64,000 nucleotides of DNA. Source: a phage. The position numbers and the translations under genes were made by a program. Shown piece by piece: positions 5,688-55,494 of this stretch (its first letter is position 1; each line of letters begins with the position of its first letter). The notes below the pieces were generated by a model. It worked only from the letters and a program-made list of their open reading frames with translations, was not told the origin of the DNA and did no database searches. The DNA is taken from the sequence record PZ027503.1. The stretch is one strand, 5' to 3'.

Positions 5688-5695
5688 GAGGGACA

Positions 5696-5938: not shown

Positions 5939-5954
5939 TAATAGGGAGGAGAAG

Positions 5955-29169: not shown

Positions 29170-29365
29170 TTCTACCTCCTTCGATGCTTTGTGCCGTACC
29201 ATCCCAAGCCATTAGAATATTTGCCAATAGTTCACGAGGCTCTTTAAACCAAACTTCCATTTCATCAAGAATCTCGTCCGTGTCGTAAGTATAACCTGGA
29301 ACACCAAGTTCGCATTTCTTAAGATAGCTTTCTAACCAGCGGTGATAATTCTTAACCCCATTCAT
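29162..29365 (-). CDS. hypothetical protein
   Basis: ORF in track. Confidence 0.4.
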   Translation of the reverse strand: MNGVKNYHRWLESYLKKCELGVPGYTYDTDEILDEMEVWFKEPRELLANILMAWDGTAQSIEGGRNE

Positions 29366-29738
29366 ACTGTGCTACCTTTTCTTTTACCCAATCTACACGA
29401 TCTTTATCATAATGTTGAGTGCCAAGGAAAAGACCATTGTGGAAACTTTCCTCACCGAAAGGATAAATCGGATCTAAACCATCTTCTTCAAATAACATTT
29501 TTAGTCTCTGTGATGTAGATTTCTTAGTTTCTGAGTTGTAGTTTGTGGTTATAAGCCAATCTTCCAAACAACGACACAAACCTTGACGAGAATCCCAAGG
29601 AAAAACGCAATCTCCGACAGGAGCTTGTTCAGCCCATTTCAACCAGCCTTTAAAAAAGTTATACAGTATGTAGTCTTCAGTGTAATACATTAGCGCCTCC
29701 TTTACGTATACAATAACACCCCGAAGAACGGGGTGCAA
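29352..29738 (-). CDS. paralogous small-protein family A member
   Basis: Shares GLC...PF...VDWVKEKV pattern with six other ORFs; AAGGAGG RBS. Confidence 0.55.
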   Translation of the reverse strand: MHPVLRGVIVYVKEALMYYTEDYILYNFFKGWLKWAEQAPVGDCVFPWDSRQGLCRCLEDWLITTNYNSETKKSTSQRLKMLFEEDGLDPIYPFGEESFHNGLFLGTQHYDKDRVDWVKEKVAQYEWG

Positions 29739-29741
29739 CTG

Positions 29742-30353
29742 TTATTTAATCTGTTTGAAAATTTCGTTTGGAACGGTACCGTTTAAAATACCTTCTACGA
29801 TCTCCTGTGCAGACGTGTAAGAGAGTCCAAAAGAAGCTACGCCTAAAATTGCCTCCTTCAAAGGATCTGGCAGGGGTTCAAAATTACCTGCAACAAAGCC
29901 ACCTGCACAAGCAGCGCCTTCATCATCCCAGAAAACAACTGCTACATCGTTACCATGCGAAGTTGTGCGATGTGCAATAACTTCAACTTCGGTGCCTTCT
30001 TTAGGAACAGAATAAGAACTGTCCCAAGAATATCTTTCCAAATCAGGAACAAAGATAACCTTTTCACCTACTGGTGGCAGTTCACAACGATAGTACCAAG
30101 AATTTTTTTCGTTCATTGTTTTATTTTCCTCCACGTCTTCAAAAGTAACGATCCAATCGTAGCCGTAAGAAAACGGATATTTTAGATCTAAAGAATAAGT
30201 TTGACCTAGATCATCCTCAACAAGAACCATCCTGTCAAAGTTTGCGATGTTAGGATTATGTTTAATGATAGGGTATGTTTCCCCTACAGTAAATTGTCCC
30301 AAATGGTAAAGTTCATCTCTCCAAGTAATTTGGATATGAGTGCATTGAATCAT
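29742..30353 (-). CDS. hypothetical protein
   Basis: ORF in track, 203 aa. Confidence 0.5.
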   Translation of the reverse strand: MIQCTHIQITWRDELYHLGQFTVGETYPIIKHNPNIANFDRMVLVEDDLGQTYSLDLKYPFSYGYDWIVTFEDVEENKTMNEKNSWYYRCELPPVGEKVIFVPDLERYSWDSSYSVPKEGTEVEVIAHRTTSHGNDVAVVFWDDEGAACAGGFVAGNFEPLPDPLKEAILGVASFGLSYTSAQEIVEGILNGTVPNEIFKQIK

Positions 30354-30357
30354 AAAA

Positions 30358-30633
30358 TCACCCCCAAGAAATATTTATATATCTTACAATGTTTGCACTG
30401 TCTAAAGCCATGTTTGCACCACACCCACGCTCGCGCCAGTAACTAACAATACCTTCGCAGATACTTTCTTGTATCTTCTTATCACTTGGCATTTCTAGTA
30501 TAAGACTTGGGTTGTGGATGTTTATGTTATAATATCCTTCCTCTGCGGCTTGAGCTACCAACTTACTTACTTTTTCAAAGTACGGGGAATTAGTAGCATC
30601 TGCCATTGTTTTTAAGGTTTGTCTATCCATCAT
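30358..30633 (-). CDS. hypothetical protein
   Basis: ORF in track. Confidence 0.45.
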   Translation of the reverse strand: MMDRQTLKTMADATNSPYFEKVSKLVAQAAEEGYYNINIHNPSLILEMPSDKKIQESICEGIVSYWRERGCGANMALDSANIVRYINISWG

Positions 30634-31028
30634 TCTACCTCATCATAGAAGAAATCCAACTCTTGTTCCAGTTGTTTAACTCGATCCTTAACCCACTGTA
30701 CACGTTTTTCATTAAACATACAACGTTTTTCCTTACACTCTTGCTCAAAAGATTTTGCTGTGTTAAATGGGAAAGTTGTATCTAAGCCAGCGTTTTCAAA
30801 ACTGGCTAATTGCATACCATAAACAGAATATGCTAAAGAATGCTCTGCCCGAAATTCATCACTTATATACATACGCAGACCTCGGCATAAGCCAACATCA
30901 GCGTAACCACTTTCTCTTGGAAAGAGACGGAGGTGTTCTAACCAATTATTATAGAAATCTAAAAGAATCCTCTTACACTTCAAATCAATTGTCATAAAAA
31001 GTTTCTCCTTCATCAAACAAGTTGGCAA
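30630..31028 (-). CDS. paralogous small-protein family A member
   Basis: GLCRGL...PFN...RVQWVKDRV pattern. Confidence 0.5.
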   Translation of the reverse strand: MPTCLMKEKLFMTIDLKCKRILLDFYNNWLEHLRLFPRESGYADVGLCRGLRMYISDEFRAEHSLAYSVYGMQLASFENAGLDTTFPFNTAKSFEQECKEKRCMFNEKRVQWVKDRVKQLEQELDFFYDEVE

Positions 31029-31395
31029 GATTGTTCATGGCAATCTGGGTGGAAAGAAGACAACTGTTTGCAGACACATAAGCACGAGCTATTTTGTAAA
31101 CATAGACTTTCGTATTACAATTGTCTAGGATCGGAAGGCTTTCGTCGATAGCATCTATAACACTAAACATCACATCTAAAACTTTAATGGTGAGTGTTGT
31201 ATTTGTATCTTCGTAACCTTTTTCAATCAGACCTGAATAGAAGGTATAGTCCTCAACAGTTCGTCGTTTAAATTGGCGCATAAAATCGGAACCATCTGTA
31301 GCAGAATTGAACAAATTTTCAAAAAATACGTCCCATCCGGCAAAAAGGGCTGACAGCATGATTAAGTGATCTACAGATTCATTTTCTTGTTTCAT
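30985..31395 (-). CDS. hypothetical protein
   Basis: ORF in track. Confidence 0.45.
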   Translation of the reverse strand: MKQENESVDHLIMLSALFAGWDVFFENLFNSATDGSDFMRQFKRRTVEDYTFYSGLIEKGYEDTNTTLTIKVLDVMFSVIDAIDESLPILDNCNTKVYVYKIARAYVSANSCLLSTQIAMNNLANLFDEGETFYDN

Positions 31396-31403
31396 ATCCT
31401 CTC

Positions 31404-32075
31404 CTATTTAATGTTAAGTCTGGCACACAAACGAGAAACAGTTTTAGCATCCCATTTACCACCACGTGCTGTTGCTATTTTCTTACTGTTGAATTTTTCA
31501 GCAATAGTTTTGTAAGGTGTATTTAAATCTCTAAGGATCTCCAAACGTTCACGGAATGTCTCTGCAAAAGCATCTGCTTTAACAGAGTTGTATTCCATTT
31601 TTCCTTTTCTACGCGCAGCGGCAGTTTTAGGATTAGCACTGCCTAATAAAACACCTTTGCTTTTTGCTACAGCAAGACCCTTTTTAATACGATCAGCAAT
31701 ACCTCTAACCTCTTGTTCAGCCAGAACAGACAGAAGCTGTATAACCATTTTATCTGCATCTGGCATAATGGCTATCTTAACATCAATCATTTCTAGAAGA
31801 GTTGCTACGGAGGCGTTGTTACGACCCAAGCGGTCAACTTTAGCTACCAATAAAGTTGCTCCGGTAGCTTTACACATTTCAACCGCTTTAACCAGTTCCT
31901 TACGTTGCTTCCAATCGCCCTTACCCGAATAGTATTCAGAAAATTGACCAATAACTTCCGCATCAGGCACAGAGTCTAAGAAGTAACGGATATCGTTCTC
32001 TTGGCTCTCCATACCATATTGTGCCTCGCCTTTTTTCTGTTTAGAAAGACGACTGTAAACAACAAACTTTTTCAT
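31404..32075 (-). CDS. small serine recombinase (resolvase/invertase family)
   Basis: YSRLS...SQE catalytic region, KVDRLGRN, LAEQEVRGIADRIKKGLAVAKSKG, C-terminal HTH; start ATG 32075 after AGGAG; TTGACA-17-TAAAGT upstream. Confidence 0.8.
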   Translation of the reverse strand: MKKFVVYSRLSKQKKGEAQYGMESQENDIRYFLDSVPDAEVIGQFSEYYSGKGDWKQRKELVKAVEMCKATGATLLVAKVDRLGRNNASVATLLEMIDVKIAIMPDADKMVIQLLSVLAEQEVRGIADRIKKGLAVAKSKGVLLGSANPKTAAARRKGKMEYNSVKADAFAETFRERLEILRDLNTPYKTIAEKFNSKKIATARGGKWDAKTVSRLCARLNIK

Positions 32076-32145
32076 AACCACTCCTAAACCATTGCTGTAT
32101 TCTCACTTTACAAAATGAATAAACACTTGTCAAGGTATTTATTAT

Positions 32146-32358
32146 TTACAGCCATTCTACTCTTAAGCAGTATTCCTCGACATGTTGTTTACGCTTGTTT
32201 TTGTCTATGTAAGTGTATTCAACAAATGTCCCAAGATAGTCCTTGTCTACATTGTGTGGGCTATTGATTGGACATTTAGTACGACAAACCCGTTGCCACT
32301 GACGAAGAATTACGGCTTTGTTTTTAGGATCAAACGGATGAGGGTAATATACCTTCAT
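32146..32358 (-). CDS. hypothetical protein
   Basis: ORF in track. Confidence 0.45.
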   Translation of the reverse strand: MKVYYPHPFDPKNKAVILRQWQRVCRTKCPINSPHNVDKDYLGTFVEYTYIDKNKRKQHVEEYCLRVEWL

Positions 32359-32682
32359 TCACGCCCCCTGTTTTAGTCGAAAAATATTTTGAATAACTAG
32401 AGATGTATAGTTATCACCTAGTCCCATAAGTTCTACTTCCAAGTTTCGAATATCTTCCACCGTAGGAGGATATGTTGGTAAAAATGCTTGAGCATTGCCA
32501 GATCCAACCTCATTGCTGTAAGCAGTTGTAAAATTGTAAGATACAAAACATGAAACACCTTTTTGTCGGTACCCGATTAATCGACGAATACACCAGATAA
32601 GAGCCAAACCTATGAGAACACCTCCTAAACCAGCTAACAAGAAGGATAAGTTCATAATAGCTTCGTTAACAACTGCTTGCAT
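32359..32682 (-). CDS. membrane protein (one predicted TM helix)
   Basis: NLSFLLAGLGGVLIGLALIWCI hydrophobic segment. Confidence 0.45.
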   Translation of the reverse strand: MQAVVNEAIMNLSFLLAGLGGVLIGLALIWCIRRLIGYRQKGVSCFVSYNFTTAYSNEVGSGNAQAFLPTYPPTVEDIRNLEVELMGLGDNYTSLVIQNIFRLKQGA

Positions 32683-32692
32683 TCTTTTCTCC

Positions 32693-32992
32693 TTAGTTAT
32701 GTAAACCCAAATGTGCTACAACTTCTCTACGATAAGATAACTGCATAGCGATTTTATAGCCAGGATGAAAACCATTTACATCAATGTCATCAAACCAAAC
32801 CTCAAACGAACCGTGCTTAAGAGTCATTAAGTTGATATACCATTCGATAGTATAATGATCGTCAGCAATACCTTCGATGTAAAACTCTCGGCAACAATGA
32901 GATAAATCTTCACTTGTTTCACGTTTCCAGTCTTTGATAGCACCCTTCTCTTTAGCTTTATTCAGAATGTGGATCAGGTCTTCAACTTGCAT
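32693..32992 (-). CDS. hypothetical protein
   Basis: ORF in track. Confidence 0.45.
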   Translation of the reverse strand: MQVEDLIHILNKAKEKGAIKDWKRETSEDLSHCCREFYIEGIADDHYTIEWYINLMTLKHGSFEVWFDDIDVNGFHPGYKIAMQLSYRREVVAHLGLHN

Positions 32993-33044
32993 ATTCTCTC
33001 CTTTGTGGTTAATCTTTATATTTTAAATATTGTACCGTCTTCTG

Positions 33045-33458
33045 TCAAATAGTCTCTTTCTCTAAAACAACTCTTTGGATCACAACATCTTCAATGTTTG
33101 CCAAACAATGACCCAAAGTCAATCCCGCCTTGAAAGGTGCTTGTAGTTTGGATTCGGCTTCTACGCGAACAGAATGTTCCGCTCCGCACATGGTGTAATC
33201 TACACGGTAAACGTTTAAACCTAAGAACATAGATTCTTCTTCCTCACAACAAGGATGAAGTTCAGCCCAGTCCCAAGCATCTCCTTCTAAAGCAAATGGA
33301 GTATTGTAATTGAAGAAAGTGCAGCGCGGATATTCCCCGTTGAAAGAATCTTTCAGCAGAATATATTTCTTACCGTTTGCATGGAAGAGTTCTCCTTTGA
33401 TAACTTTACCTACAAGGATATCACTGTTAGTGGAACGGGTGCAAATAAACTTTTTCAT
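33045..33458 (-). CDS. hypothetical protein
   Basis: ORF in track. Confidence 0.45.
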   Translation of the reverse strand: MKKFICTRSTNSDILVGKVIKGELFHANGKKYILLKDSFNGEYPRCTFFNYNTPFALEGDAWDWAELHPCCEEEESMFLGLNVYRVDYTMCGAEHSVRVEAESKLQAPFKAGLTLGHCLANIEDVVIQRVVLEKETI

Positions 33459-33512
33459 GATTTTCTCCTCTCTGTTTCGATGAGATGATTATGACAAAGA
33501 CAGATCCTTCTG

Positions 33513-33839
33513 TCAACCAATTATTTCTTCTGCTACACGTTCTTTTACCCAGTTCACACGATCCACATTCAAATGACAACGGCCTTTTTCCGCTTCTAAG
33601 GTGTACTTTCCAAAATTACTGTTGAAAGGCAACACCATAACCAAACCTTTGAGGTAGAACTGCTCATGCATTTCATCCAGTACAGGTTCGTATCGTTCGC
33701 TTTCTCCTATGTCGTAAAAATCATAGAGGTTCGTGCACAAACCTGTGCAACGGGTGAACGGTTCACCTTCAGGAGCACCAGCTTCCAACCATGCCAAATA
33801 CGTGCGGTAAAATGTTAATAGCTCTTCGCTCATTTCCAC
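33513..33839 (-). CDS. paralogous small-protein family A member
   Basis: FYRTYLAWLEAGAP...GLC...QFY.KGL...PFN...CHLNVDRVNWVKERV. Confidence 0.55.
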   Translation of the reverse strand: MEMSEELLTFYRTYLAWLEAGAPEGEPFTRCTGLCTNLYDFYDIGESERYEPVLDEMHEQFYLKGLVMVLPFNSNFGKYTLEAEKGRCHLNVDRVNWVKERVAEEIIG

Positions 33840-34042
33840 TCTCCTTCGTGATAGTAAACCTCAAAAGAATAGTAAGTGAACATGCTCATTGTAACACCTG
33901 CCATTTCTGGATCAAAGGGGGTGTTGTTATACATGTCAACTACTGCCTGACCCGCTGCTTTGGCATGTGCTGCTGAATCACAGGCACAAACATCTTTCTC
34001 CCACGGAAACTTGCCATCATACTTAAGACGGACAATCCACAT
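33830..34042 (-). CDS. hypothetical protein
   Basis: ORF in track. Confidence 0.4.
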   Translation of the reverse strand: MWIVRLKYDGKFPWEKDVCACDSAAHAKAAGQAVVDMYNNTPFDPEMAGVTMSMFTYYSFEVYYHEGEWK

Positions 34043-34044
34043 GC

Positions 34045-34272
34045 TTATTCCTCCATCTCAAACCATTCAGGGAACACTTTATGGAAGACACGGGTTGTTT
34101 CCAAAAGGAATTCCAATTCTTTTTCCAGATCTGCGTTCCAATCGTGCACTTTAACATTGATTGCCAATGCACTTGCACGGCGACTCAATTCTTGACAGAT
34201 TGGATCACGCAGAACTATTGAGTCATAAAACTGACAAACAGCCTCAAGTTCATACCAGTTATAATCCGACAT
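34045..34272 (-). CDS. hypothetical protein
   Basis: ORF in track. Confidence 0.4.
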   Translation of the reverse strand: MSDYNWYELEAVCQFYDSIVLRDPICQELSRRASALAINVKVHDWNADLEKELEFLLETTRVFHKVFPEWFEMEE

Positions 34273-34598
34273 TATTCATCCTCCTCTGCAATACGATCTC
34301 TTACCCAATTAATCCTGTCCACGTTCAGGTGACATACCTCTGCATCTGATTCTAAGACATATGCATCGTAGTTCTCATTGAAAGGGAGTTCTTGACTCAA
34401 CCCTTTGTGGTAAAACTGTGAGTGCATTTCATCTGACAAGGTTGTTATAAGAGGATTGTAGCCATCCGCGTGCACATAGTCGAATAAGTTGGCACACAAA
34501 CCGCAATCCCGCCGAAAAGGTTTACCATCAGGAGCACCAACATCAATCCACGCTAGATAAATTTTATAAAACTCCATCAACCTTGCACTTGTTTTCAT
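34272..34598 (-). CDS. paralogous small-protein family A member
   Basis: Near-colinear with 33513 gene (FYKIYLAWIDVGAP...CHLNVDRINWVRDRI). Confidence 0.55.
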   Translation of the reverse strand: MKTSARLMEFYKIYLAWIDVGAPDGKPFRRDCGLCANLFDYVHADGYNPLITTLSDEMHSQFYHKGLSQELPFNENYDAYVLESDAEVCHLNVDRINWVRDRIAEEDE

Positions 34599-34836
34599 TT
34601 AGCCACCTCGTTAGTTTTTCTTGCTCTTTGTTTGCGCGTTCTAAGCTTCTGAACTTTAAACAGAGGGAACGAGAATCCCTACCCATGCACAAGCTTTCAT
34701 CTAAGCTGTGCTCCCCAACCAACCAAAGAGAGTATGTTTGAACATCTAACCCATAGTTTCTGTCTTTCCATAATCTCACCCCAAGAACATCAAAAGGCGC
34801 TTCCGCGACTAAAGAAAGAAACCGATCTTTATTCAT
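34564..34836 (-). CDS. hypothetical protein
   Basis: ORF in track. Confidence 0.4.
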   Translation of the reverse strand: MNKDRFLSLVAEAPFDVLGVRLWKDRNYGLDVQTYSLWLVGEHSLDESLCMGRDSRSLCLKFRSLERANKEQEKLTRWLNENKCKVDGVL

Positions 34837-34898
34837 ATTACACCACCTTGCTCACGTTGATAATGTATGTATACCATACATAAAATAAATGTCAAGGC

Positions 34899-35099
34899 TT
34901 ATCGACACAGATAGTTGTAACGATCTGCTTTATCCTCTGCTTCAGCAAAGTCAGCAATCAAGGAAGTTTTGAGTTCTTCCAACTCTTTCACCCAAGAGTC
35001 GTAATCGTTCTGTGTTTCTCCAATAGTTTGGAGAAAACAATCGTCGTAGCCAATAGACATGGCTAACTCGATAATACGTTCCAGTTTTTCTTCCATCAT
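34899..35099 (-). CDS. hypothetical protein
   Basis: ORF in track. Confidence 0.4.
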   Translation of the reverse strand: MMEEKLERIIELAMSIGYDDCFLQTIGETQNDYDSWVKELEELKTSLIADFAEAEDKADRYNYLCR

Positions 35100-35458
35100 T
35101 TCTCTCCTTCTACAGGCTTCTGTTTAACATAAAAGTAAGCACCACGAGCAAGATACAAATCATGTTCAATATCGCTCACAGGAAAACCATCTGGATTTTT
35201 AAAACCATCTTCTACAGCCAAAATGAGAGATCGTAAACTGATAGCTAACAACTCCATTTGATCTTGTAGTTTTCTATTTTCTGCGTAAAGGTTTTTGCAT
35301 TTTTGTTCTGCATTTTTCCATTGTTCTAATGCATGATCATAGCGGTGCATAAGAATAGCTTTTTCTTGTTCACGCTTAAAAGTTTCTTCGCAAATGAAAC
35401 CTGTGCCTAAACCAGTTTCTTCGTCTTTGACAAACACTTCAACAAAATCTTTAGACAT
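35096..35458 (-). CDS. hypothetical protein
   Basis: Track ORF trimmed to ATG 35458 after AGGAG, removing overlap with upstream gene. Confidence 0.4.
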   Translation of the reverse strand: MSKDFVEVFVKDEETGLGTGFICEETFKREQEKAILMHRYDHALEQWKNAEQKCKNLYAENRKLQDQMELLAISLRSLILAVEDGFKNPDGFPVSDIEHDLYLARGAYFYVKQKPVEGEK

Positions 35459-35459
35459 A

Positions 35460-35750
35460 TTATCTCCTATTTGCTTTAGGATACTCCCAACCCTCTGGGA
35501 GATCTTCTTTACACATCCACTCAAAAGGCCAGCGACAATAACTGTGCCATTTTCCATTGAGATACAAACAATCTTCATCTACTGGTCCACAAGGGTTGAT
35601 AACTACAACACACCCTTTCGCTCGCCAATATTGAACTATTTCAGGGTAAAAACAAGAAACGTCGGTCCACTCCCAAATACGTTCATCATTCAGACGGTAG
35701 GCTGCTGGTAATGTTTCTTTCATAGTATTAAACCTGAGCCAAGGAGTCAC
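35460..35750 (-). CDS. hypothetical Cys/Trp-rich protein
   Basis: ORF in track. Confidence 0.4.
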   Translation of the reverse strand: MTPWLRFNTMKETLPAAYRLNDERIWEWTDVSCFYPEIVQYWRAKGCVVVINPCGPVDEDCLYLNGKWHSYCRWPFEWMCKEDLPEGWEYPKANRR

Positions 35751-36183
35751 GCCAATTACGGCTATCTCCTTCTCCTAAATACCAGTAATCCGCAGCATTA
35801 AAAACTTGATAAGGAATACGCCACGCATAAGCGAAATCTGGAATCTCCGGTTTATGACTGTAACCATAACGCTCGCCATTCGAATCTGTTGCAATATAAT
35901 TAACAAATTCAGGAACCTCTAAAGTTTCACCTTGATACTCTACACGCTTGAAGCCATCTTCCACTTGTTCCTCCCCTTCTACCAGAAGGGCAAGAAGTTT
36001 GATGTGAGGGCAAGTGAAATCTTGTCCTGGATAACGTGAACGGATATCAGTTAACAATGCGATCACAGCATCCGATAACTCTTTATAATCCTCATATCTT
36101 ACAAATGTGCCTTCTGTCGGATCATCAGGACATAAACGCCAAACATCGTTGCAGTTTACAGCATAATGTCGCATTTTAGTCAT
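35728..36183 (-). CDS. hypothetical protein
   Basis: ORF in track. Confidence 0.45.
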   Translation of the reverse strand: MTKMRHYAVNCNDVWRLCPDDPTEGTFVRYEDYKELSDAVIALLTDIRSRYPGQDFTCPHIKLLALLVEGEEQVEDGFKRVEYQGETLEVPEFVNYIATDSNGERYGYSHKPEIPDFAYAWRIPYQVFNAADYWYLGEGDSRNWRDSLAQV

Positions 36184-36193
36184 AAATACCCCC

Positions 36194-36592
36194 TTATCGT
36201 TGCGTACAATCAGCTTCTAGAGTAAGAACATTCGTTATTGTTTTATCATTTTTTAGAAATGCAAACCAAGCCAAAGTGTCTCGATACTCTGTGCGCATCA
36301 TTACTACTTCAGTAGTGCCAATAAACTGTTGTGAACCGTACATAGCACTACCATCTTTACTTTTTTCTCCTGTGTATTGCAGAATGCCACTCATCAAAGC
36401 ACCACCTGAATTTTTAAGGATAAAGGAGTTATCTTTGTTAATGACAACAGAAGCCATTTTCTTAGGACCAGAAATAACTTCACCTTTCAGATTTTTAACA
36501 ACCACCTCTGACACACACTCATAAACTTGAGACGCATTTGCTGTTCCAAGTGATGCAATGAGTAACAATAAACCTACAATGATCTTTTTCAT
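36194..36592 (-). CDS. secreted protein with N-terminal signal peptide
   Basis: MKKIIVGLLLLIASLGTANA then polar mature region; GAGGAG RBS. Confidence 0.5.
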   Translation of the reverse strand: MKKIIVGLLLLIASLGTANASQVYECVSEVVVKNLKGEVISGPKKMASVVINKDNSFILKNSGGALMSGILQYTGEKSKDGSAMYGSQQFIGTTEVVMMRTEYRDTLAWFAFLKNDKTITNVLTLEADCTQR

Positions 36593-36687
36593 ATAAACTC
36601 TCCTCTTTATTTACCCGACGCGCCCCTGTTGGGCGGAAAGGGTTGTACGCAAAATTTTTAGCTCCAATCGTCGGGTGTCCCGACTCC

Positions 36688-36894
36688 TTACGCTTTTAAT
36701 GTTTTAACAGAATGACAAGCTTTGCAAACCATAACCGGAACAAGTTCATCTCCATTATCCGCATAAATCACTGTTTTCTTCATTCTGCCACCACATGAAC
36801 AATACTCCGTATGATCCACTGGAATATTAAATATTCCGTAATCACTTTCATACTGTTTCTTACATATGGACACTGCTTTTGTAAAACAAGACAT
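36688..36894 (-). CDS. small zinc-binding protein
   Basis: CSCGG...CKAC pairs. Confidence 0.4.
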   Translation of the reverse strand: MSCFTKAVSICKKQYESDYGIFNIPVDHTEYCSCGGRMKKTVIYADNGDELVPVMVCKACHSVKTLKA

Positions 36895-36896
36895 AC

Positions 36897-37118
36897 CTAC
36901 TCCGAAAGAACATTCACTTCATCAGAGAAAAATACGTAATCACAACCTTCCCAAACATCTTCTTCAAACCACTCCCATCCCTCAACTTTGGACATTTCTT
37001 CTATCGTAACAAAGAATGTTGTCATGTCATCGCTAACAAGATGTGCTTCAACAACAAAAGGAATCTGAACATTCTCAAAACCAACATAACCCAATACATC
37101 GCAAACTCTAATTTTCAT
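36897..37118 (-). CDS. hypothetical protein (paralog of 42078..42308)
   Basis: Shared KIR...EWF.E...EG.DYVFF pattern. Confidence 0.45.
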   Translation of the reverse strand: MKIRVCDVLGYVGFENVQIPFVVEAHLVSDDMTTFFVTIEEMSKVEGWEWFEEDVWEGCDYVFFSDEVNVLSE

Positions 37119-37119
37119 A

Positions 37120-37320
37120 TTATGCTCCTTTGTAGATTATGTTGGTGCGTTCACACTCTGCCACCAGCAAGCGATTAGCAATGTTGTCCATAGGAACATC
37201 AATCTCTACGCTCCAGGCATTGATATACACTTCTTCAATCTTTGCTCCAAGCGTTTGTGCGATCAGAGCAACAGCCCCAGCATATTCAAGTTTAATCTCA
37301 ATTACCATTTTGCACCTCAA
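37120..37320 (-). CDS. hypothetical protein
   Basis: ORF in track. Confidence 0.4.
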   Translation of the reverse strand: MRCKMVIEIKLEYAGAVALIAQTLGAKIEEVYINAWSVEIDVPMDNIANRLLVAECERTNIIYKGA

Positions 37321-37322
37321 GG

Positions 37323-37559
37323 TTATTTATCTTGCTTGTATCTTACAAGGCGATCACACTCTAGGTCAAGAAATTTCTCCGCATTTCGTTCATGTTTGAG
37401 CACAATACATTGTTCTTTCCAGTCTGTAGCTCTTTGCTGCGCTGCTCCTGGGTCAAAATCCCAAAGCCATGCCGCGAAAAGAACTACCATAACAATTACT
37501 AAGAAACTAAACACTATTGGCATTGCACATCCTCCTGTGTGGCATGGTCTTTTACCCAT
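37323..37559 (-). CDS. small membrane protein
   Basis: MPIVFSFLVIVMVVLFAAWLW hydrophobic helix. Confidence 0.4.
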   Translation of the reverse strand: MGKRPCHTGGCAMPIVFSFLVIVMVVLFAAWLWDFDPGAAQQRATDWKEQCIVLKHERNAEKFLDLECDRLVRYKQDK

Positions 37560-37828
37560 TTTATACGGGCAGCATTCAAATGCAATAGCCCGTTTCTTTG
37601 TGCAAAATCATATTTAAACCAGTCTCCGTCATCAAACGGGTATTCTTCAGACAATCCTGCCTCACGGAATTGCATTTGCATTTCATAATTTAGATCATCA
37701 TAACCTCCAGTCCAAAGGTAGAGGCAACTACATAATCCTTTATCATGCCAGAAAGGATTATTATCTGGAGCACCAGCTAACAGCCAGTTATGATATGCTT
37801 GATAAAATTCTTTAAGTTCTTCTGACAT
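37514..37828 (-). CDS. paralogous small-protein family A member
   Basis: FYQAYHNWLLAGAP...GLC...QF.EAGL...PFD...LHLNAARIKWVKDH. Confidence 0.5.
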   Translation of the reverse strand: MSEELKEFYQAYHNWLLAGAPDNNPFWHDKGLCSCLYLWTGGYDDLNYEMQMQFREAGLSEEYPFDDGDWFKYDFAQRNGLLHLNAARIKWVKDHATQEDVQCQ

Positions 37829-38005
37829 TTAACCTCCTGTGTACAGGGTTGAAAGATACACAGCAAACGCATTCTCGGCTGTTTTCACCTCCTCTTCAAG
37901 ATCTTCACGCTCTGCTGGCGTTAATGCATTCCGCACAGCAGCGTCTGCTTCTCGGATTTTTCTTACTAAACGTGAAACATCTTTCAATTGTTGAAAAGTA
38001 GCCAT
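37829..38005 (-). CDS. small protein (58 aa)
   Basis: Below track cutoff; AGGAG RBS; TAAATG junction with downstream gene. Confidence 0.35.
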   Translation of the reverse strand: MATFQQLKDVSRLVRKIREADAAVRNALTPAEREDLEEEVKTAENAFAVYLSTLYTGG

Positions 38006-38019
38006 AATTTTCTCCTGTT

Positions 38020-38379
38020 TTAGTGAGTATCACGCCATTCGGCAATCTCTTCGGCTAAACGATCACAAGAATCGAAAGCCACTTTACCTTCACCAGGGTA
38101 GTTCCAGAAGACACCCCGTGAATCTGTAATGTTTATATGATACTTGTCCCACATCTCTTTTGCAAGTGGTCGATCAACATATCCTTCAAAATATATTTCA
38201 GTTTCTGCTGAATATGGAGTGTAATCACTGGCAGCAAAAGCATCCTGGAAGATCACCATCACGTTACGTGTTGTGCTTGGGTACATCAATTGGTGAAATT
38301 TCAACAACCTTCCGTTGATCCTAACAACATCTCCTTCAAACAAGGAGATATCTTTTACTTTACGAAATTCTCCGCTCAT
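38020..38379 (-). CDS. hypothetical protein
   Basis: ORF in track. Confidence 0.45.
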   Translation of the reverse strand: MSGEFRKVKDISLFEGDVVRINGRLLKFHQLMYPSTTRNVMVIFQDAFAASDYTPYSAETEIYFEGYVDRPLAKEMWDKYHINITDSRGVFWNYPGEGKVAFDSCDRLAEEIAEWRDTH

Positions 38380-38388
38380 TTTACCCCC

Positions 38389-38580
38389 TTAATACACATC
38401 TCCTACAAACCAGATTTCTGGATCGCCATACTGATCCTTCTCGTAAGATTTATAGACATTACAGCAATATTTCAAAACACCATCGACAAAGATTGTTGAT
38501 CTTTCTTCTGGAATCTCTGTGATTTCACCTTTACGGGTTTCGAAGATGGTATCACCATTTTCAATTAGTCTGATTTTCAT
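38389..38580 (-). CDS. hypothetical protein
   Basis: ORF in track. Confidence 0.4.
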   Translation of the reverse strand: MKIRLIENGDTIFETRKGEITEIPEERSTIFVDGVLKYCCNVYKSYEKDQYGDPEIWFVGDVY

Positions 38581-38779
38581 ATCGTACTTCCTTCAATGCG
38601 AGTAATGCATTCACCAGATTATCAACACCTTGATCATCCAGTGCAATAACATCAAAGTTAAACCCTGTATCAGTTGGGACTTTACGTTTTATGGTGTAAT
38701 AGTCTCCTTCATGACGTTCAACATCCGCGTATGGGTAACTGCTGTTTGGATCATGTTTTACGCGAATAGATGTTTTCAT
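38561..38779 (-). CDS. hypothetical protein
   Basis: ORF in track. Confidence 0.4.
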   Translation of the reverse strand: MKTSIRVKHDPNSSYPYADVERHEGDYYTIKRKVPTDTGFNFDVIALDDQGVDNLVNALLALKEVRYENQTN

Positions 38780-39249
38780 GTTTTGTTCTCCTCTTTAATT
38801 GCAACACGGAACTTATTAGCTTCTCTCACCTGGTGCATGAAGTCTTTCTTCTTCATAATCCAGATGGACATTTCATCCAGTTCTTCTGGGTGAATCTGAA
38901 GATTACGGCGATCAGACAGGAACCAAGTTTTCTCCCACCAGAAGCGTTGATCCTCCTCTTCGTGATATTTATATGTCTCTTTTTCTTCTTCTGTGAGAAG
39001 TTTGAATCGGTTTTTCGCTTCGTACCTCATTGGGGTATGAAAAGGAATGCCATTATCACCATTATACACCGCAGACGTACCCAGACAATAACCAGTTTCT
39101 GCGTCGATCATTTGGTAGTGAAACTCACACTCCAGTTCAACATACTCTAAATCCCCATAAAAATCACTAATCAAGAAAGCAATGTAAGTTTCACCGTGTT
39201 CGGGAACAAATTCTTGCTTTGTCAACATCTCCAGTTTCAAACCTGCCAT
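38776..39249 (-). CDS. hypothetical protein
   Basis: ORF in track, 157 aa. Confidence 0.45.
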   Translation of the reverse strand: MAGLKLEMLTKQEFVPEHGETYIAFLISDFYGDLEYVELECEFHYQMIDAETGYCLGTSAVYNGDNGIPFHTPMRYEAKNRFKLLTEEEKETYKYHEEEDQRFWWEKTWFLSDRRNLQIHPEELDEMSIWIMKKKDFMHQVREANKFRVAIKEENKT

Positions 39250-39261
39250 TGCTTTTTCCTT

Positions 39262-39513
39262 TTAGTCAAACCAGTTGTATTCAGAAGGGTAACGAGCGTA
39301 GTTTGGCTTGTACCCCAGCCTTTTCATCTTAACAGACATACGAGTGAAGCCAAAGGTTGTTTTGCCCTTAGACATAAACTTCTTCCCACTCTTCATTGGC
39401 TTCTTAGGGTCTTTGATCGTCTGGTGTAACGCTCGCGCAAGCCATAAAGTGTATGCGCTCGGCACTTGATTAACTTTCATCTTGTTACCTTTCATCATTT
39501 CACCTCGGACCAA
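39262..39513 (-). CDS. small basic protein
   Basis: Lys/Arg-rich 83-aa ORF. Confidence 0.4.
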   Translation of the reverse strand: MVRGEMMKGNKMKVNQVPSAYTLWLARALHQTIKDPKKPMKSGKKFMSKGKTTFGFTRMSVKMKRLGYKPNYARYPSEYNWFD

Positions 39514-39794
39514 TCAATAGTGATCCACTCATATGCTCCGTTTAGGTCCATTTCTTTATAAACAACAAGCCCACGCTCACGAAGAATTGCTACTGCTTCA
39601 TCCATCCACTTCACCTGATTGTAGATCTGCTCTGGGTGGGTGGGAGAATTATTCAGACCAAAATCAGATGGCGTGAAATTTCTTGAAGAGTTTCCCGCTC
39701 GTGCTTCAGCAAAACATGTCTCGATCACTTCTTCAACAGGGAAGTTGAAGGAAGCTTCTTTTGCAATACGGCGTAACTGTTCGGTCAGATTCAT
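39495..39794 (-). CDS. hypothetical protein
   Basis: ORF in track. Confidence 0.45.
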   Translation of the reverse strand: MNLTEQLRRIAKEASFNFPVEEVIETCFAEARAGNSSRNFTPSDFGLNNSPTHPEQIYNQVKWMDEAVAILRERGLVVYKEMDLNGAYEWITIDWSEVK

Positions 39795-39821
39795 CTTATT
39801 CTCCTTTCGTTGTGCGAAACA

Positions 39822-40259
39822 TTACAGCAGATCTAATGCTTTCAACTCTTCTTTCAATGATTCAGGCAGGTCACATTCAATGTCAATCAGAGATAACAAG
39901 TGACCAACAATGCCTTCCAGATGTTGATACTCACTATAACTTATAAATTCAGAATTGTAAACAGAAACATCCTTAGTTTCTTTCACAACTTCCCCCGCAG
40001 ACACGCACATAAAAAAGTTACGCTCTCCGCGAGCTAACAATATCTCCCAACTCCTGAACGGATACTGTCCAGCTTCAATAATATCCCCGCTGTCCAATAA
40101 AGTCAATGAGCAAACAGACCCTGATTCACTAACATCTTCGACGCGGAAACAAGACCCTTCAATCAAAGCTGCCATTTTGAAATTTTCATCAGAGATCATA
40201 GAGAAAGCTTCACATGCAGCTTTACTTTTGAAACAGTAAACAGCATTAACTTTAAACAT
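39822..40259 (-). CDS. hypothetical protein
   Basis: ORF in track. Confidence 0.45.
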   Translation of the reverse strand: MFKVNAVYCFKSKAACEAFSMISDENFKMAALIEGSCFRVEDVSESGSVCSLTLLDSGDIIEAGQYPFRSWEILLARGERNFFMCVSAGEVVKETKDVSVYNSEFISYSEYQHLEGIVGHLLSLIDIECDLPESLKEELKALDLL

Positions 40260-40271
40260 AACATTCCCCTT

Positions 40272-40727
40272 TTAAACAAAAGATACGCCGATGGTAGCAA
40301 CAACCAAACGTTTATAAACTTCAACCTCTTCTGTAGGATTAGCCATTTTATGCTCTGCTGCTTCTTTCAAAGCTTCTTCATAACTTTCAAATCCAGAAAT
40401 ACAGGTGTCATCAGTCATTACAACATACCACTCTTCTTTTGTTGTATCAACAGGTTCTTCTTGGGGTTTTCCACGACCACCACGAATACCACCGTCAACA
40501 AAATAATCTATATGAGCAGAATTGATTATGTAACGATCCCCATCACTAGCAGTGATAATACCGTCTCTCCCTATCACAACAATTGACAAGATATTACCAT
40601 TTGCATCAGTGCTCAACACCTCGAAAAAATTCTCTCCAATGATAGCAGCCATACTGTTATCAAAGGTAGAATATAATTGCATATAATCTTCATCCTGGAA
40701 ACGGTAGACATGACCTTCTTTGAACAT
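40272..40727 (-). CDS. hypothetical protein (tandem paralog B1)
   Basis: C-terminal WYVVMTDD...EVYKRLVVATIG resembles adjacent gene. Confidence 0.45.
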   Translation of the reverse strand: MFKEGHVYRFQDEDYMQLYSTFDNSMAAIIGENFFEVLSTDANGNILSIVVIGRDGIITASDGDRYIINSAHIDYFVDGGIRGGRGKPQEEPVDTTKEEWYVVMTDDTCISGFESYEEALKEAAEHKMANPTEEVEVYKRLVVATIGVSFV

Positions 40728-40732
40728 TGGCT

Positions 40733-41269
40733 TTACTCCTTATCAATAGTGATTGTGGCGTTTGCTACTGCAACACGAGCGTAAATCTCAACCGTCTTCG
40801 ACGGATAATCCTTCTTAGCTTTTGTAGCGACTTCAGAAGCTTTTTCAAAACTAGAACAAACATCTACACACTCTGATCCTACGATCACAACATGCCATTG
40901 TGGTTCTGCTTTACCCATTGTTTCCTCCTTTACTTCTTCAAAATATTTAAATTCTTCGTTATCAATCAAATAAGTATACGAATTAAACCCTGGGGTAACA
41001 CCTGCTGTATAGAGGGTACCATTGATATAAAACTCAAGAACATGACCATACTTATCATCTGTATTCATAACTTTGAAAACTTCGTTTCCAATTGCTTGAC
41101 AAACAGCAATATTTGCTTTGTCCTGTGTTGCCATAGCTCCTTGGTCAGCAACGCTTTTGAATTTATAAGTAAACCCTACTTTAAACACGATGTGCTCCTT
41201 CTTGTTCAAGAGTAAAAGGAATGATTTCACCGTAGCTGTATCGCATAGCATCCACTTCTTCTTCTGCAC
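40733..41269 (-). CDS. hypothetical protein (tandem paralog B2)
   Basis: C-terminal WHVVIVGS...EIYARVAVANAT resembles adjacent gene. Confidence 0.45.
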   Translation of the reverse strand: MQKKKWMLCDTATVKSFLLLLNKKEHIVFKVGFTYKFKSVADQGAMATQDKANIAVCQAIGNEVFKVMNTDDKYGHVLEFYINGTLYTAGVTPGFNSYTYLIDNEEFKYFEEVKEETMGKAEPQWHVVIVGSECVDVCSSFEKASEVATKAKKDYPSKTVEIYARVAVANATITIDKE

Positions 41270-41375
41270 GTTGTGCTAGTTCTAATGTTGCACAGATTTT
41301 GTAAGGGACAGTGCTGCATTGGCTCCAGCCTGGGGTATTCTTTGTTACTAAATATACAGTAGTTCCTTTATTCAT
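41181..41375 (-). CDS. hypothetical protein
   Basis: ORF in track; overlaps upstream ORF end, start uncertain. Confidence 0.3.
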   Translation of the reverse strand: MNKGTTVYLVTKNTPGWSQCSTVPYKICATLELAQRAEEEVDAMRYSYGEIIPFTLEQEGAHRV

Positions 41376-41829
41376 AACTTTCTCCTCCTAGTTCATCATA
41401 CCATTTCAAAGCGTCTTTTGGAAGCATACCAAAATCTTCTTTCAGTTCTTTTTCAATCTCTTCTTGCATTTCCATCAGCGTTTTCAGTTGACGGACTTTT
41501 TTGTGCATAGCCACATTCCTTTCATTAAGGTTTGTCACTACATTATTTGCACGACTCGGTGGAAATGACAAAGGTTTCACGGGAAGATAATCTTCGATAT
41601 TATCTAGTGCGTTACGAAAATTATGATCCAAGAAACGCACATCTACACGATTGTAATCAGCAGCTACAACAGTGAACACTTTAAACGGCACGTTGGATAA
41701 AGTATGTTGCACACAGACAGTACCCATATTACCTTCAATTTTACTGGTAACTTCCAGCAAACCTGTATGAGCACTAACATAATCGTGAACACATTGCACA
41801 TAAGCTGCCAGTATAGTGAATTGTCTCAT
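41368..41829 (-). CDS. hypothetical protein
   Basis: ORF in track. Confidence 0.45.
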   Translation of the reverse strand: MRQFTILAAYVQCVHDYVSAHTGLLEVTSKIEGNMGTVCVQHTLSNVPFKVFTVVAADYNRVDVRFLDHNFRNALDNIEDYLPVKPLSFPPSRANNVVTNLNERNVAMHKKVRQLKTLMEMQEEIEKELKEDFGMLPKDALKWYDELGGESYE

Positions 41830-42074
41830 TTTCTACCTCCCCATAATGCTAACATTTTATTGAAAATGGAAACGCGTCGTGCGCGAGATGCCATATCATA
41901 GTTCATTCTTTCCGTCTCTGCAAGAAATTGATCTACTGTAATCAACGCTTCTGTTTTCTCTTTCAGAGTTTGCATATTCATCCATTCACATTCGGAGTAC
42001 CAATTATCGAAATACAAACTATCAAGAAGATCCATTGCTGCTTCGTTCTGTTGTGGTGTGATCATTGCACACAA
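41826..42074 (-). CDS. hypothetical protein
   Basis: ORF in track. Confidence 0.4.
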   Translation of the reverse strand: MCAMITPQQNEAAMDLLDSLYFDNWYSECEWMNMQTLKEKTEALITVDQFLAETERMNYDMASRARRVSIFNKMLALWGGRK

Positions 42075-42077
42075 CCT

Positions 42078-42308
42078 TTAATAGACAATTTCATATTCGT
42101 GAGGAAAGAAAACATAATCTTCCCCTTCTCGTGCATCTATCTCGTCCCAAAACCACTCCTGCACTTCCATCATCTTCGAGAATCGCACATGAGCAAGCCC
42201 ACTGTATTCCACTGTAGCTTCCAACACAAGTGGAAATTTTGCATGTGCCAATCCTTTATAACCACCATCATTCTCAATACGAATTTTCATACGTTTCATG
42301 TTATGCAT
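42078..42308 (-). CDS. hypothetical protein (paralog of 36897..37118)
   Basis: Shared EWFWDEIDAREGEDYVFF pattern. Confidence 0.45.
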   Translation of the reverse strand: MHNMKRMKIRIENDGGYKGLAHAKFPLVLEATVEYSGLAHVRFSKMMEVQEWFWDEIDAREGEDYVFFPHEYEIVY

Positions 42309-42510
42309 CTTTCATATTCTCCACGAAGTGACGAGCAACAGGATTCCCGTGGAAATATTCATTGATGAAATCGATCACACACGTTTCACTGCCTGTCACA
42401 ACGGACGGTGCGAAGTTTCGGAACTGCACGAGTACACGACTTGCATTAGCAAGGGTGTGCACACGATCAGTGTTAGCTAAATACAAGGATACAGTTTTCA
42501 TATTTGACAT
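42301..42510 (-). CDS. hypothetical protein
   Basis: ORF in track. Confidence 0.4.
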   Translation of the reverse strand: MSNMKTVSLYLANTDRVHTLANASRVLVQFRNFAPSVVTGSETCVIDFINEYFHGNPVARHFVENMKDA

Positions 42511-42569
42511 TTCAATCTCCTCATTGGCTATCTGTTATGTGCGGTATGCAAACCACTATACAGACATTT

Positions 42570-42953
42570 TTATTCAATGCAAGCATTATTTGCATCTTCA
42601 ATGCGATCTTTCACCCATTGAAGACGTAACGTGTTGGTATGACACGCCAAGTTTATACACTCTGAAAGGTAATCCATGCAATCTGCATTGAACGGAAGAT
42701 TGTAGTCCAGCCCTGCACATGTAAATTGTTTCCTCATTTCATATTTCAAACGGTCTAACAAACTATCCCGCCATCTTCTATCTTCTTCTCTAGTTGTCTC
42801 ACCAACAAAATCATCTACATAATCTACCAGACAACCACATAAGCCACTCGTTGTGCGATTCATTGCAGGATAGTTGGCAATCCATGCTTTATAGAAGCGA
42901 AGCAATGTTGCACTACTCAACGGAATATTATTTGTCATTTTTCTCTCCTTCAT
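42570..42953 (-). CDS. paralogous small-protein family A member
   Basis: FYKAWIANYP...SGLCGCL...QF.CAGLDYNLPFN...RLQWVKDRI. Confidence 0.5.
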   Translation of the reverse strand: MKERKMTNNIPLSSATLLRFYKAWIANYPAMNRTTSGLCGCLVDYVDDFVGETTREEDRRWRDSLLDRLKYEMRKQFTCAGLDYNLPFNADCMDYLSECINLACHTNTLRLQWVKDRIEDANNACIE

Positions 42954-43272
42954 AATCCTGAATTCTATCTAACACCCATTGTATACGATGTTTGTTTTTA
43001 TGGCAAATATGTTTTTTATGTTCGAAGGTGTATTCTTCATAACCACCTTCATTAAACGGGAAATTGTAATCTAGTCCTGCACTAATAAACTGTGATTTCA
43101 TCTCCTGTTGTAGACGAGGTAACAGTTCATCAGGGTATGTTCCCTCTACATACTTAATCAAACATATGCACAAACCACTCGTTGTGTGACCTTCTACCTC
43201 ACCAGTAAGCCAAGCTTTGTAAAACTTCATTAGACGTAAGCTACTCAACGGAACATTTCTACTCTCTTGCAT
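42928..43272 (-). CDS. paralogous small-protein family A member
   Basis: FYKAWLTGE...SGLCICL...QF.SAGLDYNFPFN...RIQWVLDRI; GAGAGGAG RBS. Confidence 0.5.
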   Translation of the reverse strand: MQESRNVPLSSLRLMKFYKAWLTGEVEGHTTSGLCICLIKYVEGTYPDELLPRLQQEMKSQFISAGLDYNFPFNEGGYEEYTFEHKKHICHKNKHRIQWVLDRIQDYEGEKNDK

Positions 43273-43793
43273 GATAATCTCCTCTCATTCTTAGCCATCT
43301 TTCATGGCAATCATCAATCACCAACATCATACGATCAATCTTAGGGAATTACAATCGAATTATCATAGGGGATTCCTATCAATTATCCCATATATACCGA
43401 TTATTTTTGACACCCCACTCTTGTATAAAAAGTAACCCAAAATATCTACGGGGAGAGATTATTTCGGGACACCCTGTTTCATGGCAATCATGGCAAGAAT
43501 ATCTAATAGAATCAATATGATATGGCAAAAATCATGGCGCATACGTAAGAAGTGCTTAACGCGAACTTTCGGGCCGTCAGGTCCACGCAGCGACAATTCC
43601 CAAATATCATGCGAATGAGAATAATTATCATTCGTATTCAATGACTTATGCAAGGCTCATGCCAACATAGCGACAAGGTGGGCCACTTGATTATAAATCA
43701 CACAAACACTTATTTATCAATAGGTTGGCAACTTCATCATATGACGGAACAATGTCAACTAATCCCGCTCATAACAGACAGACTATTATTTAT

Positions 43794-43807
43794 ATGAGAA
43801 TGATTAT
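43794..43807. repeat. ATGAGAATGATTAT direct repeat, copy 1
   Basis: Identical 14-mer at 56494-56507; both within near-palindromic AT-rich sites. Confidence 0.4.
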
Positions 43808-44202
43808 TATTTAAACGTTTATTAACATAAAACCAGAATAAATCAAGAATTTTCTGATTTTATTTACGTTTAAGAGAAGATGCTCAACATCCTACCGGAT
43901 CGCCGTTGGCAATCCTGCGGATATTTACGCCCCCATGATTAAGGTTTATCTCTTTTCTTAGTGCTCAACATTCCCGCCCGTGGCGGTAACATTTCGCCCC
44001 CAAAATTATTGACTTTTATTCTATTATGTGCATAGTGTGCAATGTATCGGAATGATGATAATCATCCTCCCATTGCCCCCAATAATTATTGCCATGCTAA
44101 TGATCTCATATTGTAATTATTACAATGATTATTGTTATTGCGCTAATGTTATGATCTTGGTAATTACATATAATGCTAATAATAAGCCAGCGCAATGAGT
44201 GT

Positions 44203-44218
44203 AAGCGTAATTACGCTT
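44203..44218. repeat. perfect 16-bp palindrome AAGCGTAATTACGCTT
   Basis: Self-complementary over 16 bp. Confidence 0.5.
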
Positions 44219-44379
44219 GCAATTATTGCAAGCTACGCAATAACAAGAAATAACCGTCACCGATGGTTATGATTGTTGGGGTGTAGTTGGCTTATTATTA
44301 GCTCGCTATGTGTCCGGCATAGCGTGCTAATGATGATCCTGGGAATGATTCGTTTTGTAATGATTTCATTCAGTCACTA

Positions 44380-44620
44380 TTATGGCAATAGTTATTATTT
44401 TAATGGTTTCGTTTGTTATTGTTCGTTAGTTGGTTGTTTTGTCGTGTTATCGTTATTTTGCTTAGTATTCATCATGGTTTGATTGTTTGTCGTTATCAAT
44501 CATCTTGCTATTATTCCTTTGATTATGATTAGTTTGCTTATTGTTTTATGTTGTTTGTTGGTTAGTTGTTGCGAACTATTATCAACATTATAATTATGCG
44601 CTTATATTGCATAGATAATC
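44380..44620. repeat. strand-skewed GT-rich low-complexity tract
   Basis: About 240 bp composed mostly of T and G on the plus strand with degenerate GTT/ATT repeats. Confidence 0.4.
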
Positions 44621-44852
44621 ATGGGTAGATGATAATGGTTATCATTGCACTAGAAAGGAGGTAGAAGGGTGTTTTTGATGGTTTGTTGTTGGTTGTTGAT
44701 CGATTTTAACCGCTATAAATGGCTCTCTAACAGCCTGTTACCCTGGGAGGTATGGTTATTCGTTTAATGGTTGATTAGCTCGATACCGCGATTTATTCAA
44801 TTTTGTTCTGTGTCGGTTTTTCATAGGCGAAAGCTATCAACATTGTTCGGGC

Positions 44853-44889
44853 AAAAAGAAAGGGCGCTTGGTGCGCCCTTGTTTTGTTG
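44853..44889. terminator. bidirectional terminator
   Basis: GGGCGC-ttggt-GCGCCC hairpin flanked by AAAAAGAAA and TTGTTTTGTTG. Confidence 0.5.
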
Positions 44890-52234: not shown

Positions 52235-52462
52235 TCAGATTAATTCATCCAGGCATAACAGGCGATCAACGTTGAGATCGGTTAGGCTGATGGTTGGCAC
52301 CTGGTAGGATTCGATGTACTCGACGCTTGCATATTCCCCAAAATTAGCAATAGCCCACTTATTCAAGATCTCACATACATCATTAATCTTTTTGTTTGTT
52401 ACGACTGCAATAACCTGGGAAGTGCCAACGGTGCCGGATACGCGAACAATATTGATAGCCAT
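52235..52462 (-). CDS. hypothetical protein
   Basis: ORF in track; N-terminus MAINI shared with 52882 gene. Confidence 0.45.
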   Translation of the reverse strand: MAINIVRVSGTVGTSQVIAVVTNKKINDVCEILNKWAIANFGEYASVEYIESYQVPTISLTDLNVDRLLCLDELI

Positions 52463-52552
52463 AATCTTTAATCTCTCTGTTTTGGCGGGAAACCACTTCC
52501 CGCCCTATGTGATACATCTTACACTAATTTTAAACGTTGTCAACTGTTTTTA

Positions 52553-52792
52553 TTACATTCCAACCATCGCGGCACGGATCGCAGTAGTGCTATATTTGAA
52601 ACCGTCTGGCGTTTTATCTTGTCCAGTTTGTTCCAGAAAAAGCATCATATCCCGCGCCGCATCATTACGATTAGCATTAGCGTTAATAAAATCTTGGGCC
52701 AACCGGTATAACGATTCATCGTTATTAATCCAAAGGCTTACATTCCAATGAGTTTTGTTTTTGTGACCGTTGTACATTTTAGATTTAGCCAT
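52553..52792 (-). CDS. hypothetical protein
   Basis: ORF in track. Confidence 0.45.
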   Translation of the reverse strand: MAKSKMYNGHKNKTHWNVSLWINNDESLYRLAQDFINANANRNDAARDMMLFLEQTGQDKTPDGFKYSTTAIRAAMVGM

Positions 52793-55131: not shown

Positions 55132-55404
55132 TTAAAGCAAAAACGCTACATCTTGCGCTTTTAGTGTAGTATCAACCATTTTCGGGCTTTTATAATCAAC
55201 AAAGCGCGCGGTTTTTTCAATAGCGAAACCGAGATAATCTTGCTTGTTGAAATTACACTCTTTCTTAAATGTTTCCCGTGCAATGGCAATCGCTGCGTCC
55301 AGGGATAAACGCCCGTCAATATTGATATTAGCGAAAGATCCGCCACCGCTCATAGGTTTACCAGTTGTGCCAGCTACGATCATTGTTGCGCTATATGATG
55401 CCAT
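55132..55404 (-). CDS. hypothetical protein
   Basis: ORF in track; cassette upstream. Confidence 0.45.
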   Translation of the reverse strand: MASYSATMIVAGTTGKPMSGGGSFANINIDGRLSLDAAIAIARETFKKECNFNKQDYLGFAIEKTARFVDYKSPKMVDTTLKAQDVAFLL

Positions 55405-55494
55405 GATGATAATCTCTCTTCTGTTACGAGCGGGAAACCACTTCCCGCCCTATGTGATACATCTTATCAGGTTGTTGTTTGTTGTCAATACTTT

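Follow-up and report, generated by a model that had tools for sequence, protein, structure and literature searches.

Several uncharacterised phage proteins described so far belong to the family reported here. Coliphage N4 gp3 (104 amino acids), located by tblastn with family members at 1226-1504, lies in the left, first-injected end of the N4 genome, and no function for it was found in literature searches. Phage PTXU04 (61.6 kb) carries three adjacent members, gp85, gp86 and gp87 (95-96 amino acids), in a tandem array, and gp87 matches PHROG 2510 with an E-value of 7e-26. Phage phi92, a Justusliebigvirus of the same subfamily as the phage studied here, has gp006 and gp010 in the same left-end block by the terminal repeat, gp010 being extended at its C terminus by about 80 residues (PHROG 27059). 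Where N4 has a single copy, phi92 only two and PTXU04 three, the phage in sequence record PZ027503.1 has seven diverged copies dispersed over 14 kb. This phage is a Phapecoctavirus, a phAPEC8-like Escherichia coli myovirus of ~150 kb, and the stretch analysed, referred to as the window, is 64,000 nucleotides long. An initial annotation, made from the DNA sequence alone, had proposed seven paralogous open reading frames on the minus strand, and all are present. With the starts adopted below they are as follows (E-values are against PHROG 2510 and, where given, a family hidden Markov model, HMM).

29352-29690, minus strand: copy 1, 112 amino acids; PHROG 2510 E 5e-27, HMM E 5e-23; ATG at 29690 after AAGGAGG
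30630-30995, minus strand: copy 2, 121 amino acids; PHROG 2510 E 3e-26, HMM E 2e-24; ATG at 30995 after AAGGAG
33513-33833, minus strand: copy 3, 106 amino acids; PHROG 2510 E 2e-31, HMM E 5e-36; closest paralogue is copy 4
34272-34598, minus strand: copy 4, 108 amino acids, canonical; PHROG 2510 E 3e-32; the copy whose structure was modelled
37514-37828, minus strand: copy 5, 104 amino acids; PHROG 2510 E 8e-29
42570-42938, minus strand: copy 6, 122 amino acids; PHROG 2510 E 3e-25; ATG at 42938 after AAGGAG; downstream member of a tandem pair, with an 11-residue insertion in a variable loop
42928-43272, minus strand: copy 7, 114 amino acids; PHROG 2510 E 4e-26; upstream partner of copy 6 in the tandem pair, and the first gene to follow a gene-free stretch of 1.5 kb

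The homology of the seven copies is well supported. A MAFFT alignment is colinear throughout, with 15 invariant columns that include GLC..L, F..GL..PF and R..WV, and in Smith-Waterman comparisons all 21 pairs score above 200 shuffles (z = 7.4 to 65), down to the lowest-scoring pair, 29352/42570, at 23% identity. The similarity extends over about 100 residues and five helices, and is therefore not a low-complexity stretch. The closest pairs are 33513/34272 (51% identity, z = 65) and 42570/42928 (45%). Paralogy, a colinear pattern and the identity of these two pairs had all been proposed from the sequence, and each was borne out; within the proposed pattern GLC, PF and R..WV proved invariant, but G-A-P occurs in only three of the seven copies, and a fourth reads QAP. 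A profile of the seven copies, searched against a six-frame translation of the whole window, returned exactly seven matches (E < 1e-38), the next having an E-value of 0.54.

In four copies the longest open reading frame begins too far upstream, and good Shine-Dalgarno starts are found at 29690, 30995, 33833 and 42938. These trimmed starts are ATG codons after AAGGAG-type ribosome-binding sites, and Shine-Dalgarno sites are present at all copies. The longer TTG start of copy 1 (29738) would read through a terminator-like hairpin at 29716-29736, and copy 2 is annotated in public records as the same gene of 366 nt. The size range first given, about 105-130 amino acids, narrows to 104-122 once the four starts are trimmed, and the seven proteins are small and acidic (isoelectric points 4.5-6.2).

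All seven copies match PHROG 2510, whose function is unknown (E 2.5e-25 to 3.4e-32, profile positions about 4-113); PHROGs 6418, 27059 and 2176 are matched less strongly, and some copies are labelled pVOG VOG7392 in one public record. Other proteins matching PHROG 2510 are a gp3-annotated homologue in the N4-like phage vB_Eco_SPSP (E 7e-24), phi92 gp010 and a homologue on a P1-like plasmid. The initial annotation did not recognise the family, and members, including N4 gp3 and phi92 gp006, are indeed hypothetical in every record, but the family is already in phage orthologue catalogues as an uncharacterised group; what is new here is a well-documented seven-copy case and a clean family definition. 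Neither the seven copies nor distant homologues matched Pfam, NCBIfam or PADLOC at the curated cut-off or E < 1e-3.

The family is large. A profile search run exhaustively against 1.84 billion cluster representatives recovered 1,944 members at E <= 1e-3 and 961 at 1e-10, and tblastn found homologues in 261 phage records. The phages concerned include N4-like and T1-like phages, rV5/phi92/phAPEC8-like myoviruses, the Xuquatrovirus PTXU04, the T4-like phage JC221 and jumbo phages. By tblastn T4 itself has no homologue and JC221 is the only T4-like phage with one; the sole plasmid match is the P1-like phage-plasmid. Restriction to phages was assessed with a hand-made degenerate DNA pattern for PFN...H.N..R..WV, which recovers four of the seven window copies against a chance expectation of none. 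Only two of its 12 matches in 596 Gb of genomes from bacterial and archaeal species were true, and both of these are on short contigs (367 and 717 nt) of the Lysobacteraceae bacterium JHOS43 assembly that are nearly identical to Phapecoctavirus copies and most likely represent phage contamination of the assembly. In IMG/VR viral contigs all 59 matches were true. Judged from these scans, the family appears to be confined to phages in the collections covered.

Three candidate relatives were rejected. DUF8296 gave an hhalign probability of 0.5%. Atd1, reported as an anti-TIR factor of Phapecoctavirus, belongs to the MazG-like enzymes and is not related to the family, in which the MazG pyrophosphatase domain with its catalytic acidic motifs was not found. 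The four-helix fold of HEPN-like RNases with its R-x(4-6)-H motif was likewise not found. As a separate observation, two DUF8296 proteins with the motif W..ALRSG.Y.Q...CCLGVLC adjoin the family member on each of two unrelated metagenomic phage contigs (L005, 5477-6546; L006, 7684-9266).

The AlphaFold2 model of copy 4 is confident (predicted local distance difference test score, pLDDT, 95.2; predicted template modelling score, pTM, 0.87) and consists of five helices. The structural comparison suggested initially gave no solved relative: the predicted fold matches no solved structure, Foldseek returned only uncharacterised phage proteins among viral models, and a sequence-profile search of the PDB was also empty. 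Over 218 domains Cys35, Arg95, Pro72 and Phe73 are each 99% conserved, followed by Gly33 (97%), Asn92 (92%), Ser4 (90%), Glu57 (82%), Gln61 (80%), Glu83 (77%), Asn74 (74%) and His90 (70%, with Tyr in 15%), while the stretches 39-56 and 75-89 differ in length between members and are close to random in sequence. The conserved polar residues exceed what a bare scaffold would need, which suggests a shared site flanked by specificity loops, and from the alignment they may form one site. The same polar residues are conserved in phages of Escherichia, Rhizobium, Burkholderia, Delftia and Xanthomonas. Copy 3 is canonical and has the full set. Copies 1 and 2 form a divergent subtype without Glu57 and Gln61; copy 1 has Asp in place of Asn92, and copy 2 has Met in place of His90.

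Such conservation raises the prospect of a small enzyme of new fold, in which Cys35 would be a nucleophile aided by Arg95, Asn92, Glu57 and His90, acting on a universal host metabolite, nucleotide signal or macromolecule, with the paralogues differing in substrate. In the model the invariant Cys sits where helix 2 begins, at its N-terminal end, and substitution by Ser or Ala is very rare. The levels of conservation at Cys35 and Arg95, and at Asn92, Glu57, Gln61 and His90, speak for this reading, as do retention of Cys and Arg in both halves of two-domain fusions, strong purifying selection and conservation across phages of very different hosts. However, His90 is replaced by Tyr in a minority of members and by Met in copy 2, copies 1 and 2 remain under selection despite the loss of Glu57 and Gln61, no enzyme family is matched by sequence or fold, and an all-helical domain of 100 residues is small for an enzyme. 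On this balance we consider an enzyme unlikely.

About 11% of the family representatives are two- or three-domain fusions, and in the two-domain fusions both halves retain the Cys and the Arg. The model of a natural two-domain fusion (pLDDT 95, pTM 0.82; no PDB match) implies a fixed packing of the two domains, which suggests that single-domain members pair up, and from this model we infer that they may be dimers. Predicted domain-domain packing in small, apparently phage-confined proteins would also suit oligomeric 'sponges' that bind nucleotide immune signals in the manner of Acb2, Tad1 or Tad2, each paralogue being tuned to a different signal. A conserved aromatic position (His/Tyr90) beside Arg, Asn, Glu and Gln residues of the nucleotide-holding kind, and the presence of multiple diverged copies per genome, can be cited for this analogy, to which we nevertheless give a low probability.

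Copy number in the family varies, and tandem arrays recur in unrelated phages. phAPEC8 has seven copies, like the phage described here, ASO2A and SF1-1 have six, JC221 has four in tandem, an N4-like phage has one, and one 153-kb viral contig has at least seven (3+4), including a triple tandem. In ASO2A and SF1-1 a single chimera stands in place of the tandem pair: its head comes from copy 7 and its body from copy 6, the crossover lies near residue 11, and there is no separate copy 7; by sequence comparison, copy 7 is lost by recombination in some relatives. A second copy 6/copy 7 chimera occurs as the natural protein P0009, with a crossover near residue 70. Copy 5 shares 47-49% identity with homologues from unrelated phages but no more than 41% with any of its own paralogues, and copies 1 and 2 have only ~30% identity to all others, so that, two pairs at ~50% identity excepted, the set is either ancient or assembled by transfer and does not reflect a recent burst of duplication.

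In comparisons with three relatives, the ratio of non-synonymous to synonymous substitution rates (dN/dS) is lower in the family (0.06-0.09) than in the remaining genes of the block (0.11-0.14), and copy 5 has zero non-synonymous changes relative to ASO2A or SF1-1. By this measure each copy is under strong purifying selection within the genus. Taken with the conservation across phages of distant hosts, the low dN/dS favours a target that is itself conserved.

The 15-kb region that contains the copies has 98% identity to phage Mt1B1_P17, and at least 80% of its length is covered by each of 49 records. Four of the closely related records, named 'Campylobacter phage' or 'Acinetobacter phage' (MG065650.1, MG065645.1, MG065689.1 and OP562383.1), show 96-98% identity to the E. 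coli Phapecoctavirus region described here, and their host labels deserve checking. In phAPEC8 and ASO2A the family genes lie within a one-directional block of ~24 kb, made up of small hypothetical genes, that extends from the left genome end; the phAPEC8 block has predicted host-type promoters, and in the related phi92 the same block starts just past the left terminal repeat. The initial annotation had placed the genes in an early region, and this agrees with their left-end position, which is the sole support for the term; judged from it, the copies would probably be expressed early.

Scans of 20 neighbouring genes (Pfam, NCBIfam and PADLOC) gave no match, and the downstream neighbours of the seven copies, which belong to unrelated PHROGs, include no shared partner family. 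A further alternative is a role in the phage's own programme, in which the proteins would not act on the host but, for example, regulate phage transcription or replication, serve as adaptors in these processes, or chaperone the products of genes nearby. We regard such a role as quite improbable.

Several other features of the block were recorded. A second paralogous pair, of 73 and 76 amino acids (36897-37118 and 42078-42308, minus strand; 37% identity, E 9e-11), has one member labelled 'protein ea8.5' in one public record. The two genes lie a few hundred bases downstream of copies 5 and 6, respectively, an arrangement suggestive of an ancient segmental duplication in which a cassette of several genes was copied. 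Three adjacent genes of 145-172 amino acids (39822-40259, 40272-40727 and 40733-41251, minus strand) form an apparent tandem paralogous trio; the last two are 25% identical (E 3e-12), and the one tested against Pfam gave no match. The phage is virulent, and its early block contains, at a central position (31404-32075, minus strand), a serine recombinase gene that is annotated as a DNA invertase or resolvase in relatives. Four small genes at 38020-39249 (minus strand) have no BLAST match in phAPEC8 or ASO2A and no more than partial matches in SF1-1, and this segment is apparently a hot spot for insertions and deletions within the early block.

Immediately upstream of copy 7 is a gene-free, AT-rich stretch of ~1.5 kb (43273-44860) with degenerate repeats (TATGGCAATA.TTATTATT-like), several inverted repeats and, at its end, a strong bidirectional terminator hairpin (44860-44880). 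It has no Rfam match, the corresponding gap is likewise unannotated in phAPEC8 (5512-7022) and ASO2A, and it could be a regulatory or origin-like region. Beyond the region studied, two open reading frames on the plus strand (52314-52751 and 55283-55516) are 54% identical over 54 residues (E 3e-11).

Published functional data on the family are limited to one study. In a CRISPRi-ART screen, PTXU04 gp85, gp86 and gp87 were each scored 'Not Fit', meaning that knock-down carried no phage fitness cost in the laboratory host, and the authors' HHpred annotation of all three was 'unknown' (PMC11879866, supplementary files 8 and 16). Our literature searches, which covered PHROG 2510, N4 gp3, the phAPEC8 paralogues and accessory-gene screens, gave no other functional data, and the family was absent from both of the two accessory-gene screens found.

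The initial annotation had noted that families of this kind often act in host takeover or anti-defence, and this idea fits the apparent phage confinement of the family, the left-end position of the genes, the small size and acidity of the proteins and the dispensability of the single PTXU04 homologues. Our preferred reading, held tentatively and at somewhat below an even chance, is that the copies are host-directed accessory proteins, made early and dimeric, with a conserved polar site and loop-tuned differences between paralogues. In this scheme, the cytoplasmic five-helix domains of ~100 residues would be expressed from the early, first-injected genome end and would act on the host as accessory factors in the form of homodimers or paralogue heterodimers. 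The polar site (Cys35, Glu57, Gln61, Asn92, Arg95 and His/Tyr90) would grip a conserved host molecule, which could be a small nucleotide-like ligand or a protein. Through the hypervariable residues 39-56 and 75-89 the individual copies would be adapted to separate targets or variants, and multiple copies would broaden the range of what the phage neutralises or takes over. Taking the parts singly, the host-directed accessory role is plausible, and we infer that the target may be a host component.

A number of points weigh against this reading. The dispensability of the PTXU04 homologues could be explained by the redundancy of three tandem copies alone. Literature searches found no experiment showing binding, toxicity or counter-defence for any member, and no expression timing for the phAPEC8 phage group. 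A single shared site cannot apply to all seven copies, given that copies 1 and 2 are without Glu57 and Gln61. Low dN/dS and conservation of the polar residues across hosts are contrary to what would be expected of a fast-evolving inhibitor of variable defence proteins, and would be just as much in keeping with an enzyme or with a protein that binds a universal molecule.

A bolder form of the host-directed reading would make the new fold, with its conserved Cys/Arg/Asn/Glu site, a phage effector of a new class that acts, as an enzyme or as a ligand trap, on a target common to many Proteobacteria, and whose seven specialised variants pair with one another; we think this doubtful. The family is in any case among the larger orphan domains that appear confined to phages, with ~1,900 clusters at 50% identity, and it is attractive for experiment because it combines a confident model that has no solved relative, near-invariant polar residues, and repeated duplication, fusion and recombination under selection. 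Assignment of a function would allow thousands of phage genes to be annotated together, and one of these is an early gene of N4, a model phage. Several phages of the groups that carry the family are in use for phage therapy.

Among phage proteins of established function, Acb2, Tad1, Tad2 and Ocr are small oligomeric counter-defence proteins, and Ocr is acidic. The seven copies resemble them in being small and phage-encoded, acidic like Ocr, and likely oligomeric, an analogy that is one of function only.

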